This document shows positions 5,755 to 31,331 of a stretch of DNA of 64,000 bases, one piece after another. The stretch comes from Candidatus Multivorans sp. GTDB taxonomy: Bacteria > Acidobacteriota > Thermoanaerobaculia > Multivoradales > Multivoraceae. The stretch is taken from positions 800,001-864,000 of the forward strand of contig OZ245033.1 of assembly GCA_965224025.1 (NCBI GenBank). The letters run 5' to 3'. The number at the start of each line of letters is the position of its first letter. The first letter of the stretch is position 1. The notes below the pieces were generated by a model that saw only the letters and a list, made by a program, of their open reading frames with translations, had not been told where the DNA came from and searched no databases. The translations under genes and the position numbers were made by a program.

Positions 5755-5780
5755 GCCGGCGGGGACGCCGGCGCACCCGG
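5755..5780 (+). repeat. REP-like palindromic repeat copy
   Basis: GCCGGCGGGGACGCCGGCGCACCCGG, intergenic; same family as 10071-10096, 27676-27688 and the IS110 insertion site. Confidence 0.6.
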
Positions 5781-5850
5781 TATCAAGGAAGGGGGCCGAC
5801 GTTACCCTGAGCGAGGGAGAGCCACGCGCCCCGCGTCCACGTTGAAGACG

Positions 5851-10070: not shown

Positions 10071-10096
10071 GCCGGCGGGGGCGCCGGCGCACCCAG
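10071..10096 (+). repeat. REP-like palindromic repeat copy
   Basis: GCCGGCGGGGGCGCCGGCGCACCCAG, intergenic. Confidence 0.65.
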
Positions 10097-10301
10097 TTTC
10101 TGCCGCGCAAGCTCCGAGCTGGTCTCCGGCGCCGCGAGCGTACGCGATGCTTCGCAGGCTGGCACTCGAGAGGAGGCGTCGCGACGCTGATCTGGAGCTT
10201 CGAAGCGGGCTGCTAGGGTGCTCGCCTGAGCGGGAACCGCGGTCTGCCGTCCCGGTCCATTGAACAAGTACCGGCGCAACCTCTCGGAGGAGAAAGAAAT
10301 C

Positions 10302-26235: not shown

Positions 26236-27146
26236 TTCGCCCATTCTCGCAACTGTTCGAGGGTCGTCGTAGCGCCGCCGCAGACGATGACCAGGACGGA
26301 CTCGAAGTCCTCGAGTTCCAGTGCGCCGTCGTACACGGCGGCGAGCGACGCTCCGCAGGCCGGCTCCACGACCACCCTGTGATCGGCGAGGAACCTGTGA
26401 CATGCGGACACGGCGGCCTGATCGGAAACCACGACGCTCCGAAGCGGATGATCCCTGGTGCAGTCGAACGCTCGTTTGCAGATCTTCTTCGCCCCAAGCG
26501 TAATGGCGAGGCTGGTGATGGCGGGCAGCTCGACCCGGGAGCCAGCTCGCACCGACTGAGCCAGGGAGTCGGCGCCTTCCGTTTCGACCGCAATCACCGG
26601 GACATCGGACCAGCCGCTGCTCCGTAGCCCCTCCACGAGGCCGCACAGCAGCCCGCCCCCTCCGACGGAGACGACCACGGCGTCGGGCTTGACGCCCGAC
26701 CGCACCACCTCGTCCACCAGGGTGGCATGTCCCTGCCAGACGAGAGGGTCGTCGAACGGATGAACCAGAGCATCAGACTCCTCGACCGTCGACATGGCCA
26801 GTTCATTGGCTTCCTGCCAGGAATCGCCATGGACGACGACTTCGGTGCCTTCCTGCCGGATCAGGGCCTTGGCCCTGTCGGACGTGGTTTCGGGCACCAC
26901 GATGAGCACGGGCACCGAGAGATGGCGTCCGGCGTAGGCGACCGCGATCCCCGCGTTGCCGCCGGACGACGAGATCAAGCGCCTGGCGCCCCGCCGAACG
27001 TACTCCTGGCAGGCGAAGCCGATGCCTCGAATCTTGAACGAGCCGGGCGGCTGCATCGCGTCGAGCTTCAGCCAGATGCTCCGCCCCGCGTGGATGGACA
27101 GCGGGCGCGACTCAAAGAGCGGCGTTTCGATGTGCAGTGGCTTCAT
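26232..27146 (-). CDS. PLP-dependent L-serine/threonine dehydratase (SDS-like)
   Basis: GSFKIRG, SSGGNAG, HPFD, SVGGGGL, VEPACGA, VCGG motifs. Confidence 0.92.
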   Translation of the reverse strand: MKPLHIETPLFESRPLSIHAGRSIWLKLDAMQPPGSFKIRGIGFACQEYVRRGARRLISSSGGNAGIAVAYAGRHLSVPVLIVVPETTSDRAKALIRQEGTEVVVHGDSWQEANELAMSTVEESDALVHPFDDPLVWQGHATLVDEVVRSGVKPDAVVVSVGGGGLLCGLVEGLRSSGWSDVPVIAVETEGADSLAQSVRAGSRVELPAITSLAITLGAKKICKRAFDCTRDHPLRSVVVSDQAAVSACHRFLADHRVVVEPACGASLAAVYDGALELEDFESVLVIVCGGATTTLEQLREWAK

Positions 27147-27289
27147 GACTGGTACTTCGTCCCCGGCGAGGCCCTGTAGCCTCGCGACGTTAACGGGTCG
27201 GCCAGGCGCCCGAGCGCTCTCTGGGAGGTGGCGGCGATCCTCTCGGCGCGCTCGTTGCGATCAGTCTGATCTACGGACTCTTTCACCGG

Positions 27290-27661
27290 CGCTTCTACCG
27301 GCTGAACGGCGAACTGAACGCGCAGACCGAGCTCCAGGTCTCGATCCTGGAGCAGCGTCGCCTGGAGTCGCTCGTGACGCACCTCAGGAAGTTGCGCCGA
27401 AGCGAAGTCCGGCTCTCGGACACGGAGGCCGTTCTGTACGGCGGGATCTTCGCCGCCATGTTCGCCTTCGTGCTCGGCAACGTGTGGATCGCGGCGACGA
27501 TTCCGATGATCACGGCGGGCGCGATCTTCGCGATTCTCAGCTACTCCTGGGAGTTCGTGGAGTCGAGCATCGCCCTGCCTATGGCGCTGCAGGAGTGGTC
27601 GCGGCTCGGCGAGATCCGCGATCGGCTGAATCGGGCCACGGAAGTGGCCGAGCCTGTCTAG
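27290..27661 (+). pseudogene. C-terminal fragment of an ABC six-transmembrane-domain-like protein
   Basis: Hydrophobic helices with AGAIFAILSYSWEF..LP; no N-terminus. Confidence 0.45.
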
Positions 27662-27795
27662 CGGCGACCATCCTGCGGCGCACCCAGCGGGTGGCTTCGG
27701 TTTCAGTACCAGCGTTGCACTGCCGCACATCCCCCGCTGGGACTCTCCACCCTTTAGCAAGTGTGTTTTGGGGAGGCTGCTGCGGGTCAGGGAGG

Positions 27796-29049
27796 TCATG
27801 CGACCTGGGCATGGCATCGCTTGTTGGGGTCGAAGAGAGTTCGGTCTCGGAGCATGGCGCAGGCGACGCCGAGGAGTCGGTCGACGAGTTGTCTGATGGC
27901 GCGTCCGTGCGTCTTTCCCTGGGCTTTCATGGCGTCGTACTTGGCGCGGCTGATCGGGTCATGCTCGATGGCGACTCGTCCCCAGTGATAGACGGCGTCG
28001 CTGAGGTGTTCGTTGGCGGCGAGTCGTCGCATGACGATGAGCTTCTTGCCGGACTTGACGGTCACCGGCGCCACTCCGCAGAGGCAACGCAGTGCCTCGT
28101 GGTCTCTGCGGCCCAGGCTTTGATCGGCCTCGGAGAGCAGGGTGGCGAGGCCGACCTTGCCGAGTCCGGGCAGCGACCTGAGGATGGCGGCGTCGCTCGG
28201 CTTAGGGGAGTCGTCGTCGTTTTCCCGTTGGGCCGGGGCCTCGAGTGCGCGGGTCATCCGCTCCAGCCGCTTGTCGGCGTCGGCGAGTTGGCGGCAGACG
28301 GTGTCGAGCACCGGCCGGAGGAGTCCTATGTGTTCGACGGCGGCCTTAACGGTGTCCGGGGAAACGGCGATCGGCTCGGCCCGCAGTTGATCGCGCAGTT
28401 GGGCGGAGGTCAGGCGCCGGATGCGGTGTTCCTTGAGCAGTTTGGCGAGCGTGGCTTCGCGCAGCCGTCGAGCCTTGCCGGGGGTCGGCGCCAGTCGCCA
28501 CAAGGCCAGCGCGAAGGGCGCCGACACCTCGTTCTTGACCACGGCGAGAAACTGCGGGTAGTAGCGCCAGAGCTGGTCGCGGACCTGGTTCTCCAGGCGG
28601 TTCTTCTGGTTGACCAACTGCTTGCGGGCGCGGGACACCTCGCGCAGCATGACGATGGCGGCATCGGATGGTTGCACGCGGTTCAGGCACTCGGGGTCGG
28701 TGCGAAGCGCGGCGGCGAGCACCCGTGCATCGCGGCGGTCATCCTTGGCGCCGGCGACGGAGAAGCGGTCCCTGAAGCGGTCGAGCTGCTTGGGGTTGAT
28801 CGAATGCACGGCGAAGCCCCGCTCCAGGAGAGTCTCGACCACCGGTCCGTGCGGCACCTCGATGGCGACGCCGATCTCGTCCGGAGACGTCGGTCGGGTA
28901 TGTCCAAGGAGCCAGTCGGCCATGGCGGCAAGTCCCTTGCCGCTGTGGTCGAACGCCCGCTCCCCCCTCACCTTGCCGTCCCGATCCAGCACACACACGT
29001 GGTGGGTCTCGGACCCCCAGTCCACGCCGACGAACCACGTCCTGGTCAT
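27796..29049 (-). CDS. IS110-family recombinase (DEDD RuvC-like domain plus Transposase_20 domain)
   Basis: VGVDW, AIE, KDDRRDA; SLPGLG, GVAPVTVKSGK (putative catalytic Ser); AAGGAGGA RBS. Confidence 0.95.
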   Translation of the reverse strand: MTRTWFVGVDWGSETHHVCVLDRDGKVRGERAFDHSGKGLAAMADWLLGHTRPTSPDEIGVAIEVPHGPVVETLLERGFAVHSINPKQLDRFRDRFSVAGAKDDRRDARVLAAALRTDPECLNRVQPSDAAIVMLREVSRARKQLVNQKNRLENQVRDQLWRYYPQFLAVVKNEVSAPFALALWRLAPTPGKARRLREATLAKLLKEHRIRRLTSAQLRDQLRAEPIAVSPDTVKAAVEHIGLLRPVLDTVCRQLADADKRLERMTRALEAPAQRENDDDSPKPSDAAILRSLPGLGKVGLATLLSEADQSLGRRDHEALRCLCGVAPVTVKSGKKLIVMRRLAANEHLSDAVYHWGRVAIEHDPISRAKYDAMKAQGKTHGRAIRQLVDRLLGVACAMLRDRTLFDPNKRCHAQVA

Positions 29050-29092
29050 CTCGTCCTCCTTCTCCCTTGCGGTAGTGTTGCCTGGTCGGCAT

Positions 29093-29233
29093 GCCGCGTT
29101 GCCTGCCCGTACCTGTACTGGTGCTCTAAGGCACTGACTCTCCACTGGGCGTCCAACGCGGCGAAGCAGCCAGGGCACGGGTCCCAGCCAGGTGCTCGAA
29201 GCACAGTGCGCCGGTGGTCGCTCCTGGCTGCTT
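29093..29233 (-). ncRNA. Predicted bridge RNA target-binding and donor-binding loops
   Basis: Two stem-internal-loop-hairpin domains; loop strands match the insertion target (CCGGCGCAC, GCTGGG) and the element ends (GTGGAGAGTC, GTACAGG). Transcript ends unknown. Confidence 0.82.
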
Positions 29234-29500
29234 GCCGACCTTCCTTCAGTGACTCCGGCAGGCCGGAAACGAAACCGACCGGCGGTCCCGGCTGCGGAAG
29301 CTGCCGGTCCCGCGGAAAACGGCAGACCGTTTCCCGCCGGACCTTGGAAAACCGGCAAGCCGGTTTCCCACAGCTACCGCAGCCGCGACGGCTACTGGTC
29401 GATTCCACCTCTCTCAACGACCCACCAGAATCCACCCGAGAAAGGTACAGGTACGCCGGCCTCCGGCCGGCATCCGGCGCGAAGCGCCGGTCTCCGCAAC

Positions 29501-29734
29501 TCAGGCCACAGCCCCGACTTCAACCCGATCAACACCCAGCCGGCCCTCCTCGATCACCAGGCCGACGGCGCCGCAATCCAGCGCGGTGTCGGTGACCTTG
29601 ATCAGCGCCGCGCCGTCGACCTTGCCGATCAGGCGGTCACCATCGACCTGCAGGGTCAACTCGTGGGTCTCGCCGAGCCGCCCCGGCCCGCGTAAGGTTA
29701 GCCTTTCGCTGGCTGCGGCACCGCCCTTTTCCAC
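29501..29734 (-). pseudogene. Orphan C-terminal beta-sandwich-like gene fragment
   Basis: Protein-like frame LTLQVDGDRLIGKVDG..GAVGLVIEEG with no credible N-terminus. Confidence 0.35.
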
Positions 29735-29828
29735 GACGTCTTGTGCATTGCCGATCCATGTGGCTGCTACTCAGCGGGAGCGGGAATCCCCCGAGTCCGA
29801 GTTCAAGCGGCGCTACGGGCCACGCGGA

Positions 29829-31331
29829 CTAGGCGGCCCGTGTACCTCGCGACTGACGCGGGCTTCCGCAAGCTCGTTCCCGGGCAACGACCGCCTCCAG
29901 GTGAGGCGGCGGCCGCCACAGGCATTCCATGACGTAGGGCAGGTCCATGGGCCGGCCGTCCCAGGCAGGCATCGACTCCTTGCCGGTGATCAGGATGCGG
30001 GCGTCCTCCAGGTGTTCGATCAGTTCTCGGGCTGCATCGAGGCCTACCGGTGGCGGTGCCGGACTCTGGTCCAGCGGCCGGCCGCGCGGATGGAAGAACT
30101 GCACGGCCGTGTTGGCGCTCAGTCGGACTCGGAACCCGCCCTCGTGGAGGAGGCGGTGGTGCCGGCGGCAGAGGAGTACGAGGTTCGACAGCTTCGTTTC
30201 GCCGCCGTCGGCCCAGTGGACGATGTGATGGCCGTCGCAGTGCTTCGACGTGTAGCCGGGGAAGCGGCAACCGCGGTCGCGGAACTCGAGGGCGCGCCGG
30301 ATGGGCGGTGGAATGGTGCGGGTCTTGCGGCCGACGTTGAGGATCTGGCCGGAACGGTGACTCATGCAGACCTTGCCGGCGTCGCAGGCGATTCGTCGCG
30401 CTGTTTCTGCGGAAACAGGAACGTTGGAGTCGCCGAGCCAGGCGCCGCTGCGTGAGGGCGGTTGTCTTGCCGGCTCAAGTCGGTTTCGCGTTTCCGCGGA
30501 AACGCGCGCGGCGGTTGCGTCCCGGGAACGCTTTCCCGACTGGTGCGTCGGTGGCGTTTCCGCGGAAGCGGGCGCTGCTGGCGTTTCCGGGGAAACACGA
30601 GGCGCTCGGGCAGTTGCTGGCGCGTCCCTCCGGGCCTTGAGATCTTCGTCGTTCACATGCACGACGACCTGATACCGATCGCCGCTTGACCCCGGGTCCA
30701 GACCGGCCCTGAGCGCGCTTTCGGCAACGAGGGCGAGAGCGTCGGCGCGCACCTTGCCGACTGGTGGCCGATCCTTCGGTTGCTCGGCATAGAGCCTGTC
30801 GCCCGCAGCCTTGAGCGCCTTCATCAGCACCTCGCCCGCCTCCGGTGCCAGGCGTCCGCGAATCACGAACATGCCGTTCTCGTCGATATGGGTGGTCAGG
30901 TGACTCGACGCGTCACGCAGCTCGTCGTCGGTTGCTTCGACGGTGCGATCGATCCGCCGCCACTCCCGGACGACGCGTTCGGCTTGCGCTGCGGTCCCTG
31001 CCTTGCCGAGGTCGACCAGCGACTCCTCCGTGTCGGGCCGGACTATGCGGGTCAACGCCCTCACCTTGGAGTAGGAGAGTTGGCCGCGTTTCATCGCCTC
31101 GCTCATCAGGGGCAGTTCGCCCAGGGCCCGGGCTACGCGCACCCGTTCGCGGGCCGCATTGGGCGCGAGACCGATGCGCCAGGTGAGCCAGTGGGCGCAA
31201 CTGAGAAAGCCGCAGTTCCAGCCTTCCTGTTCATCGAACTTGCGAATCAGAACGAGCAACTCGTAGGTCGCCGCGTCGATCCGAGCCGCGAGCGTGGCGA
31301 TCTCCTAGCCCATGCGCTCCTTGGCGCTCAT
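29829..31331 (-). pseudogene. DUF222 / HNH endonuclease protein with in-frame TAG at codon 9 (31305-31307)
   Basis: SCAHWL.WR, LSYSKVRALTR, RRALEFRDRGCRFPG, HHIVHW.DGGET..NLVLLC..HH motifs. Confidence 0.85.
30401..30596. repeat. Five copies of the palindrome GTTTCCGCGGAAAC inside the DUF222 gene
   Basis: Copies at 30401-30418, 30487-30506 (perfect 20-bp palindrome), 30517-30531, 30555-30570, 30583-30596. Confidence 0.8.

Follow-up and report, generated by a model that had tools for sequence, protein, structure and literature searches.

An IS110-group element in an uncultured Acidobacteriota lineage

Mobile elements of the IS110 group raise a question that the locus studied here poses in full: does the minus strand at positions 27740-29451 hold a complete RNA-guided recombination system, and does that system still move? 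Positions refer to the window, i.e., the whole stretch of 64,000 nucleotides analyzed (contig OZ245033.1 of assembly GCA_965224025.1, Candidatus Multivorans sp., positions 800,001 to 864,000). The initial annotation had proposed an apparently intact IS110 element with a CC core and a bridge RNA whose four guide segments match donor and target. Our analysis leads us to conclude, with high confidence, that the locus is an IS110-group insertion sequence, intact in structure, whose movement would rely on recombination guided by a bridge RNA; its transcription, RNA-protein binding, chemistry, and programmability would be those expected from its membership in the family.

Anatomy of the element

The element measures 1710 bp counting one core and consists of a left end (LE), a recombinase gene, and a right end (RE), with a CC core at either junction:

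29452-29459, minus strand: left target arm CCGGCGTA in this copy, forming the 3' flank of a REP-like hairpin
29450-29451, minus strand: left CC core, the same in 14/14 copies
29050-29449, minus strand: LE, the left non-coding end, 400 nt, beginning TGTACC
27796-29049, minus strand: recombinase gene, 417 aa plus stop, with a GGAGG ribosome-binding site at 29059-29055
27742-27795, minus strand: RE, the right non-coding end, 54 nt, carrying a candidate -35 hexamer and the left donor arm
27750-27742, minus strand: left donor arm GTGGAGAGT, inside RE
27740-27741, minus strand: right CC core, read from the copy ends
27736-27739, minus strand: right target arm of this copy, CAGC, read from the junction

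On the minus strand, the left junction thus runs CCGGCGTA (29459-29452), CC (29451-29450), and TGTACC from 29449, and the right junction runs GTGGAGAGT (27750-27742), CC (27741-27740), and CAGC (27739-27736). The REP-like hairpin at the left flank lies about 50 nt past the stop codon of the upstream gene. Re-reading of the minus strand, checked by script, reproduced every coordinate and string given previously. The proposed ends and the CC core at both junctions also held, as the 14 copies in the same genome diverge exactly outside the two CC dinucleotides. Reading the two tips (TGTACC... and ...GGAGAGT) revealed no terminal inverted repeat.

These features are those of the IS110 group: an LE far longer than the RE (400 versus 54 nt), a noncoding RNA upstream of the gene, a 2-bp core at both junctions, and site-specific insertion, here into one repeat family in 14/14 copies. 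The IS1111 subgroup, in which a seekRNA lies downstream of the recombinase gene, shares the DEDD recombinase superfamily with our element. However, IS1111 elements carry a long RE with the guide RNA and subterminal inverted repeats, whereas here the two-loop RNA is located in the LE, upstream of the gene, an arrangement described for the IS110 group (PMC11208160). We therefore attach a negligible probability to IS1111 membership.

The recombinase

The recombinase has the N-terminal DEDD RuvC-like domain and the C-terminal Tnp domain of the IS110 group. It matches DEDD_Tnp_IS110 (PF01548, E 9.6e-35) over residues 7-165 and Transposase_20 (PF02371, E 2.4e-12) over residues 288-371, and it scores 177 bits against the NCBIfam model NF033542 (transpos_IS110, "IS110 family RNA-guided transposase"), whose cut-off is 140. 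Along with the IS621-type layout, these matches corroborate the IS110 identity first assigned to the element. In phmmer comparisons, the protein aligned with the solved IS621 recombinase (8wt6, chain 8wt6_A; E 7.6e-12) and, in the C-terminal domain only, with ISCro4 (9t56; E 4.3e-10). The motifs VGVD, IEV, KDDRRDAR, and KSG (positions 7, 62, 102, and 331) align with IGID, IEA, KTDTVDAR, and ESG of IS621, in which the D, E, D, D, and Ser of these motifs are described as the catalytic residues (PMC11208158). Judged from this alignment, the catalytic D, E, D, D, and Ser are conserved. Among the 120 protein relatives listed, names are absent or read only "transposase," and literature searches returned no paper on this ortholog, which the supplementary tables of large IS110 surveys may list.

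The bridge RNA and its guides

The LE holds the following features of a bridge RNA:

29254-29267, minus strand: 5' stem-loop before both guide domains, TCCGG-CCTG-CCGGA, with an equivalent hairpin in relatives
29085-29239, minus strand: bridge RNA body, its closing stem (29239-29233 with 29091-29085) around the target- and donor-binding domains
29164-29233, minus strand: target-binding domain (domain 1), closed by an outer stem of 11 perfect pairs (29233-29223 with 29174-29164)
29214-29206, minus strand: left target guide CCGGCGCAC, followed by U at 29205
29204-29192, minus strand: domain 1 inner hairpin, GTGC...GCAC
29188-29183, minus strand: right target guide, GCTGGG
29182-29181, minus strand: target-loop handshake dinucleotide, AC
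29093-29162, minus strand: donor-binding domain (domain 2), closed by an outer stem of 9 perfect pairs (29162-29154 with 29101-29093)
29145-29136, minus strand: left donor guide GTGGAGAGTC
29134-29121, minus strand: domain 2 inner hairpin
29118-29112, minus strand: right donor guide, GTACAGG
29111-29110, minus strand: donor-loop handshake dinucleotide, UA

After the 5' hairpin come two stem-loops, each with a large internal loop. Loop 1, variable among relatives, reads the target, and loop 2, conserved among them, reads the donor, in line with the IS621-like layout proposed earlier. The single-sequence fold of the bridge RNA has a free energy of -80.3 kcal/mol (z -3.5). A search of Rfam with positions 27000-30200 gave 0 matches at E up to 1, which has no bearing on IS110 membership.

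All four guides match donor or target, and each guide string occurs once in the 400-nt LE. The four strings never occurred together in 20,000 mononucleotide shuffles of the LE, their single frequencies being 0.0068, 0.296, 0.00065, and 0.029; the string check and the shuffles both substantiate the four matches claimed at the outset. The one mismatch reported with them is real: the guide has C where the left flank of this copy has T, giving a C-A mismatch. Since the commonest genomic target has C at this position, the guide matches the consensus target perfectly. Loop 1 is complementary to the two target strands and loop 2 to the two donor strands, with the caveat that Watson-Crick pairing of the left-hand guides extends to the first core base but not to the second. 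The next base, opposite the second core position, is U in the target loop, where a wobble is possible, and A in the donor loop.

According to the handshake rule, these guides are complementary to the non-cognate DNA at positions 6-7, without complementarity to the cognate DNA (PMC11208158). Here, the two product junctions, GT-CC-CAGC and TA-CC-TGTAC, are complementary to the right target guide extended by AC and to the right donor guide extended by UA, respectively, as the rule demands. AC faces the donor GT, and UA faces either the target TA, at both positions, or CA, at position 7 only; neither dinucleotide pairs with its own substrate. By its anatomy, copy ends, guide matches, and conserved catalytic motifs, the element is apparently intact.

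Copies and target sites in the genome

The genome contains 14 copies with the same ends and CC at both junctions; 12 measure about 1708 nt, and the left end is shorter in the other two. DNA identity among them is 96.8-100%. The full 417-aa frame is kept in 10/14 copies and damaged in the other four (one stops at 27 aa, three are without a normal stop), and four copies encode identical proteins. One copy is split by another insertion, and a fragment consisting of the bridge RNA only is also present. The identical proteins and near-identical copies suggest recent activity.

All 14 copies reside in one REP-like repeat, each adjoining its hairpin, and 13 of the sites read CCGGCG(C/T)A-CC-CAG(T/C), the other ...CC-CGGT. 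Reconstruction gives the target CCGGCGCA-CC-CAGT for nine copies, CCGGCGTA-CC-CAGC for four, and ...CC-CGGT for one. The commonest target 14-mer is found vacant 38 times as an exact match, versus 0.29 expected from base composition, and vacant sites total 53 when near variants are counted. Vacant sites in the window include:

5768-5781, plus strand: vacant target-like site with the CGGT variant of the right arm
10084-10097, plus strand: vacant site identical to the commonest target

Two guide alleles, with C or U in the left target guide, coexist in this one genome. A single site type in this genome fits the U allele of the left guide as well as the right guide and the handshake dinucleotide; it is filled in 4/5 cases, versus 9/47 for the commonest site type (Fisher p 0.011). 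That the handshake dinucleotide alone causes T-type sites was discounted: in a relative genome that shares this dinucleotide but has only the C guide allele, 0/17 flanks are of the T type. The U guide allele is for this reason the simpler cause.

Guides covary with flanking DNA in relatives

We compared 80 related loci (L009-L088). L084, which has no donor loop, was left out of the guide-flank comparisons; L055, in which the 5' half of the target loop is replaced, was left out of one comparison and kept in the class comparison without its left end. The loci come from metagenome-assembled genomes (MAGs) labelled Candidatus Multivorans, Thermoanaerobaculia, and Vicinamibacterales and from one Azospirillum canadense. 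Their recombinases are 57-93% identical to the present one, and they share with it the bridge RNA architecture, the donor arms, and the CC core. The left end could be placed in 78 and the right end in 72 of the 80 loci; CC is present at all of these and, judged from them, is the core of the whole clade sampled, not of this element alone.

Across the 80 loci, the stems are kept by compensatory changes. In the consensus structure, 98.9% of cells are paired and 11/31 pairs have changed on both sides, whereas slid controls pair 28-43% only. None of 500 shuffles reached the observed pairing, double-change, or covariation-score values; the observed number of further pair types was attained by 4/500. 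Donor loops hardly vary and target loops are hypervariable; target-loop guides and insertion sites vary by lineage, and the guides shift together with the flanking DNA through about ten specificities. Guide/target covariation, named in the initial annotation as a check on its reading, is therefore found across the set.

The longest exact match between a left flank and its cognate loop averages 8.25 nt in 16 left-target classes, versus 4.5 nt in 240 non-cognate pairings. On the right side, guide and flank match over 5-8 nt in 12/14 classes (non-cognate mean, 2.96). Target position 7 is paired with the first handshake base of the donor loop in 15/16 classes, by three different pairs (U-A, G-C, and C-G), and the sixteenth shows a G-T wobble. 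A few loci fit less well: the right flank of L082 matches its guide over 2 nt only, one of three L030-type flanks and one of four flanks in the L009-L012 genome fit poorly, and L066 and L083 have a donor-like right flank. Relatives of the Vicinamibacterales type carry U at both core positions of the left donor guide.

These data bear on whether the protein, or the structure of the REP hairpin, picks the target, the LE RNA being a leader or regulator whose matches stem from common descent. The position of every insertion beside a REP-like hairpin is compatible with such a choice, and structure is described as adding to RNA pairing in another IS110 element (10.64898/2026.03.19.712850). However, descent alone cannot explain the matches, because guides covary with flanks across about ten unrelated targets, on both sides of the core and at the handshake position, and non-cognate pairings fail to match. 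In IS621, moreover, the RNA is reported to be necessary and reprogrammable (PMC11208160). We thus hold target choice by protein or hairpin to be very improbable, and guidance by the bridge RNA remains our preferred reading.

A candidate junction promoter and a structured left-end module

Four further features may bear on the expression of the bridge RNA:

27760-27755, minus strand: TTGCTA, candidate -35 hexamer, in RE
29442-29447, minus strand: TACCTT, candidate -10 hexamer, with a 17-nt spacer to the -35 in the circular form only
29285-29389, minus strand: three-way-junction module between the LE tip and the bridge RNA (-90.9 kcal/mol, z -7.3)
29268-29292, minus strand: terminator-like hairpin with a U-rich tail, from a consensus scan only

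A promoter split between the right and left ends and rejoined at the circle junction is the principle described for IS621 (PMC11208160). TTGCTA and TACCTT may likewise form a candidate promoter in the circular form only; this promoter is read from sequence, and its -10 fits 3/6 consensus letters. Relatives carry TTGNNN at the same place in 72/72 right ends and TACNNT in 78/78 left ends. A consensus scan of the linear element found 0 sigma-70-like sites. About 190 nt, holding the very stable module and the terminator-like hairpin, separate the -10 from the first guide domain, and this stretch could hinder bridge RNA synthesis.

The module is conserved in class relatives and absent from two copies in this genome and, unlike in the element studied here, from the Vicinamibacterales-type relatives. 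It is also found in IS21 elements. At one module-bearing locus, L089, the minus-strand open reading frames are without a transposase domain, and the element is of the IS21 type on the other strand.

The possible block to transcription leads to a second question, whether the lineage has kept the bridge-RNA anatomy while being immobile in this host, its copies being relics of a past burst and the RNA not being made, for example, because the module and the terminator-like hairpin stop transcription from the junction promoter. The four broken frames, the split copy, and the bridge-RNA-only fragment are consistent with this, as are the lack of a promoter-like site in the linear sequence and the position of the hairpin upstream of the guide domains. 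Yet the 10 full-length frames and four identical proteins, the identity of up to 100% over about 1.7 kb, and the intact guides, stems, and catalytic motifs all argue for mobility, and same-class relatives in other species carry the module but are multicopy, e.g., with 17 copies in one genome. We consider immobility unlikely. No RNA run was among the 23 sequencing runs listed. Logan contigs of four runs, fragmented inside the repeat, gave no RE-LE joint or clean empty site and are neutral on activity. One low-depth contig (depth 3.31) skips from 27727 to 29450 with 12 other letters between, and it is taken as another REP locus, not as an excision product.

Proposed mechanism

In the bridge-RNA-guided pathway that we favor, the element would excise as a circle joining RE, CC core, and LE. 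The circle junction would set the -35 17 nt from the -10, allowing transcription of the LE, which would encode the two-loop bridge RNA. Loop 1 would pair with both strands of the REP-like site CCGGCG(C/T)A-CC-CAG(C/T) and loop 2 with GTGGAGAGT-CC-TGTAC, the junction of the element's two ends. Strand exchange at the CC core would then be carried out by a DEDD/Ser recombinase tetramer, and the handshake dinucleotides, complementary to both product junctions, may aid this exchange.

We tentatively raise a broader reading, which we regard as possible but doubtful. The element would belong to a natural CC-core lineage centered on Acidobacteriota with a slightly altered reading rule, in which the right guides alone read both core bases, the core G's face U, A, or UU in the left guides, and target choice in vivo reaches past the two target guides to the donor-loop handshake base. 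The module shared with IS21 would be a transferable RNA or DNA regulator gating the bridge RNA.

Comparison with known systems

The founding bridge-RNA recombinase, IS621 of Escherichia coli, is described as having the same DEDD RuvC-like and Ser Tnp domains, and a long LE whose RNA has a 5' hairpin and loops for target and donor (PMC11208160, PMC11208158). The loops carry top-strand sense on their 5' sides and its complement on their 3' sides, with handshake dinucleotides; IS621 also has a 2-bp core at both junctions, REP-type targets, and promoter halves split between RE and LE. These features recur here, the promoter halves as candidates. The present recombinase is only distantly related to that of IS621, as the phmmer E value indicates, and its core is CC, in contrast to CT. 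Its left arms read 8-9 nt, the second core position faces U in the target loop and A in the donor loop, and about 105 nt of its 400-nt LE form an extra structured module. Known from sequence alone, the element is carried by an uncultured Acidobacteriota lineage.

IS622/ISCro4 of Citrobacter rodentium, engineered for human cells (10.1101/2025.05.14.653916; PDB 9t56), is of the same family, with 14-nt two-loop recognition and handshake guides; it differs by its reported CT core, and the sequence match is limited to the C-terminal domain. ISPpu9 and ISPpu10 of Pseudomonas putida (PMC12288879, 10.64898/2026.03.19.712850) are likewise described as multicopy IS110-family elements in host REP sequences, in another phylum and at another target, and are likened to our element by description.

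Significance

The element is a new, uncharacterized example of the bridge-RNA mechanism known since 2024; the mechanism itself is not new, and its understanding is unchanged. Bridge recombinases are under development as programmable tools for DNA insertion, excision, and inversion. IS621 and IS622 are reported to use a CT core, and the other cores tested are AT, GT, and TT. The present locus offers a complete natural CC-core system, with a defined donor and target, two guide alleles, and 14 occupied and 38 exact vacant sites, to which the relatives add a graded series of other targets. This completeness makes it a ready candidate for testing whether the protein or the RNA sets core preference, and it is also a candidate for widening the range of addressable sites. 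For the biology of the host, the REP-like repeats of an uncultured Acidobacteriota lineage serve as landing pads for RNA-guided elements.

A CC-core element and its recombinase

A search of the element's own assembly (5.14 Mb, 67.6% G+C) returned 12 matches of 1724-2001 nt at 96.8-100% identity, 2 more copies with a shorter left end and several fragments. Junctions were located through internal anchors (9 left, 15 right), and looser parsing extended the reading to all 14 copies. Each copy has ...CCGGCG(C/T)A, CC, TGTACC... on the left and ...GTGGAGAGT, CC and then CAGT, CAGC or CGGT on the right. Because CC is the sole sequence common to both junctions, it is the core, as the initial annotation had proposed for both ends; a check for copies with differing ends found all 14 in agreement. 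The element measures 1708 nt plus one core, with non-coding ends of 400 nt (left) and 54 nt (right).

The one long ORF of the region, on the minus strand from an ATG at 29049, encodes a 417-aa protein. Its proposed identity as an IS110 recombinase was confirmed by Pfam (DEDD_Tnp_IS110, E 9.6e-35; Transposase_20, E 2.4e-12), by NCBIfam NF033542, "IS110 family RNA-guided transposase" (177 bits; cut-off 140), and by the solved structures of IS621 (8wt6, E 7.6e-12) and ISCro4 (9t56, E 4.3e-10). When aligned to the solved structure, VGVD, IEV, KDDRRDAR and KSG stand opposite IGID, IEA, KTDTVDAR and ESG of IS621, where the DEDD and Ser catalytic residues are described (PMC11208158). The 417-aa frame is kept in 10 of the 14 copies, 4 of which yield one and the same protein; the frame ends at 27 aa in one copy and has lost its normal stop in three.

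One copy is split after recombinase residue ~50 by foreign DNA with TTAGTGCGAGAAA-like repeats (G000:C1:13083-13648 and 5044242-5045399, on the contig of the window's own assembly). Its halves lie at opposite ends of the contig; on a circular contig, the distance between them would be ~16 kb. A solitary 207-nt fragment elsewhere in the genome (L090:468-674, minus strand; G000:C1:4322367-4322573) is 95% identical to the 5' hairpin and both guide domains. It has neither the element tip nor the recombinase gene, and its right donor guide is altered to GTGCAGG; it is probably a deletion remnant.

The predicted bridge RNA and its guides

Folding was run as a check on the predicted bridge RNA, and the 156-nt stretch 29240-29085 (-80.3 kcal/mol, z -3.5) gave a closing stem around a pair of stem-loops, both of which have an inner hairpin and a large internal loop. 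Ahead of both domains comes a short hairpin (29267-29254), as in the published consensus. The consensus structure of 23 representative sequences had 33 pairs, and in 11 of these both sides vary; removing two predicted pairs inside the right target guide left 31, with pairing in 98.9% of cells. In 500 shuffles, the observed values for pairing, double changes and covariation score were never reached, and the count of further pair types was reached in 4. In a control with the partner slid by 1-3 columns, just 28-43% paired.

In the published layout, internal loop 1 reads the target and loop 2 the donor, and 4-7 nt on the 3' side of a loop pair with the top strand; the pairing takes in the core (PMC11208160). 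The four guide matches claimed by the initial annotation all hold and fit this layout; a script check found its strings and coordinates correct throughout. In loop 1, the left guide CCGGCGCAC reproduces the left target arm together with the first base of the core, and the right guide GCTGGG is the complement of CC-CAGC. In loop 2, GTGGAGAGTC does so for the left donor arm, likewise with the first core base, and GTACAGG is the complement of CC-TGTAC. Every guide string occurs once in the left end, and all four occurred jointly in 0 of 20,000 mononucleotide shuffles.

The handshake guides, the dinucleotides directly 3' of the right-hand guides, are described as pairing with positions 6-7 of the other DNA after strand exchange and never with their own DNA (PMC11208158). 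Here, the target loop runs on with AC, complementing donor GT, and the donor loop with UA, complementing the TA of the window copy's target and position 7 only of the commoner CA target; neither AC nor UA pairs with its own substrate. Since these dinucleotides fit, the 3' loop strands are complementary to both product junctions. This fit, which goes beyond the initial annotation, strengthens the bridge-RNA interpretation.

Guides follow flanks across relatives

Scanning prokaryotes at one genome per species gave 80 loci. Candidatus Multivorans is itself placed in Acidobacteriota, Thermoanaerobaculia, and the best 120 protein relatives listed are nameless or called "transposase" only.

Relatives by recombinase identity
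Candidatus Multivorans MAGs: 72-93%
Thermoanaerobaculia MAGs: 66%
Vicinamibacterales MAGs: 56-59%
Azospirillum canadense, one locus: 58%
Gammaproteobacteria MAG, one locus: 57%
Acidobacteria MAG, one locus: 57%

The core is CC at every end that could be located through CC-containing end motifs (among the 80 loci, 78 left and 72 right ends). An alignment of 33 distinct sequences over the 230 nt upstream of the start codon shows conservation in the stems and the donor loop and hypervariable guide positions in loop 1; these guides follow the flanks.

Loop-1 guides and genomic flanks in relatives
Left AGGGGTCCC, flank ggggtc-CC; right GAAAAGG, flank CC-ttttc
Left GTGGACGC, flank gtggacg-CC; right GGGGAGG, flank CC-tcccc
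Left TTCGTCCCC, flank ttcgtc-CC; right GGGAGGG, flank CC-ctccc
Left GTGATAGCCC, flank gtgatagc-CC; right GACAAGG, flank CC-ttgtc
Left AAGCGATCCC, flank gcgatc-CC; right CAAATGG, flank CC-atttg
Left AAGCGGATCC, flank aagcggat-CC; left side only
CCGCGCACC, right flank CC-cggt; complement of guide CCCGGT

In this check of guide/target covariation, cognate matches exceeded non-cognate ones on both sides. The longest exact left flank/loop match averaged 8.25 nt in 16 cognate classes versus 4.5 nt in 240 non-cognate pairings, whose high values stem from near-identical target classes. In 12 of 14 classes, right guides matched 5-8 nt of their flanks (non-cognate mean, 2.96). Of 16 classes, 15 have the donor loop's first handshake base paired with position 7 of the target (U-A, G-C, C-G), and the sixteenth has a G-T wobble; the second handshake base pairs in 9 of 16.

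There are misfits. The right flank of L082 agrees with its guide for just 2 nt, and the fit is poor for one of the three flanks of L030 type and for one of the four in the L009-L012 genome. L055 lacks the 5' half of loop 1, and L084 lacks the donor loop. In two further relatives, L066 and L083, the right end is followed by CC-TGTAC..., like their own right donor arm and unlike the sequence expected from the right target guide. These flanks are compatible with insertion by donor-type recognition, described as a "half-match" (10.64898/2026.08.31.748434), or with a tandem remnant.

Between two Multivorans genomes (L009-L012 versus L013-L028), the fifth non-core position of the right target guide is U versus A. 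The flanks track it (CAGCA versus CAGTT), single flanks matching 9 of 9 letters (L012, L020), so in this clade the reach of the right guide can extend to five positions past the core. In the Vicinamibacterales relatives L041, L044, L047, L049 and L059, the right end lies ~3646 nt past the donor loop, versus ~1650 nt in L043; the ~2 kb extra between recombinase gene and right end is possibly cargo. Enlarged IS110 elements are reported in a 2026 preprint (10.64898/2026.08.14.744561).

Target repeat and guide alleles in the host genome

The reconstructed target is CCGGCGCA-CC-CAGT in 9 of 14 copies, CCGGCGTA-CC-CAGC in 4 and CCGGCGCA-CC-CGGT in 1. The commonest 14-mer stands uninterrupted 38 times in the genome, where base composition predicts 0.29, and 15 near variants are also vacant. 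Sites lie on the 3' side of a GC-rich hairpin, mostly just past genes; the window copy sits ~50 nt past a stop codon, between convergent ORFs.

Vacant target sites in the window
5768-5781
10084-10097

A second, different IS110-family element of ~1.65 kb has ~15 copies (G000:C1:111845, 225688, 363111, 981689, 2108967 and 10 more). In some (e.g., 225688 and 3024161), a conserved right flank, TGCGCGGCAGAA..., runs into the first element's post-target sequence, reverse-complemented. The two RNA-guided elements may use neighbouring positions of one REP-like repeat.

The single left-arm mismatch noted by the initial annotation is present: the window copy has C in its guide and T in its flank. At this seventh position of the left target guide, 9 copies have C and 5 have U. 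Guide and flank alleles combine as C-C (7 copies), U-T (2), U-C (3) and C-T (2), a loose linkage that is expected if bridge RNAs act in trans. T-type sites (TA-CC-CAGC, with TA before the core) fit the right guide without wobble, the full handshake dinucleotide and the U guide allele. They are filled in 4 of 5 cases, and sites of the commonest type in 9 of 47 (Fisher p 0.011, small numbers). The four insertions have unrelated outer flanks and are therefore independent events. Since T-type flanks number 0 of 17 in a related genome that carries the C allele alone, the U allele would be the main cause of T-type insertions.

Candidate promoter halves and a left-end module

TTGCTA (27760-27755) and TACCTT (29447-29442) are candidate promoter halves that the circular form would join, 17 nt apart; at the same places in relatives, all 72 right ends read TTGNNN and all 78 left ends TACNNT. 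The element and its class relatives carry ~170 extra nt between the candidate -10, TACCTT, and the 5' hairpin.

Structures in the extra left-end sequence
29389-29285, minus strand, three-way-junction module (-90.9 kcal/mol, z -7.3)
29292-29268, minus strand, terminator-like hairpin

The module (~105-125 nt) recurs at four other loci of the genome at 87-89% identity (G000:C1:3672584-3672706, 2474161-2474283, 4048787-4048909 and 1301954-1302035), with one repeat sequence shared upstream by all four. Of these, the first (L089:3085-3207) was examined, and there the module lies just downstream of, and opposite in orientation to, an IS21-type IstB-like gene (PF01695, E 2.6e-77). In Multivorans and Thermoanaerobaculia relatives it is better conserved than the adjacent left end, and one of its hairpins shows a compensatory change. 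Two own copies and the Vicinamibacterales relatives lack it. The module had no Rfam match.

Relation to known bridge recombinases

At the sequence level, every defining IS110-group bridge-recombinase feature tested is present, the junction promoter standing apart as a candidate. Compared with IS621 and IS622, the recombinase protein is distant, the left-hand guides have non-Watson-Crick bases opposite the second core position, the left end is long with a structured module added, and the host lineage differs (Acidobacteriota). The core is CC in place of their CT; the initial annotation had already set it apart from the CT of IS621. Among the papers listed by literature searches (20 of 30 and 10 of 43 found), none named a CC core together with bridge RNA terms or treated IS110 in these taxa, and large supplementary IS110 catalogues may already contain the clade. 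We rate the element as a very clean, fully readable putative example of the already known bridge-recombinase kind. Unsurprising to a specialist, it is useful as a natural CC-core system.
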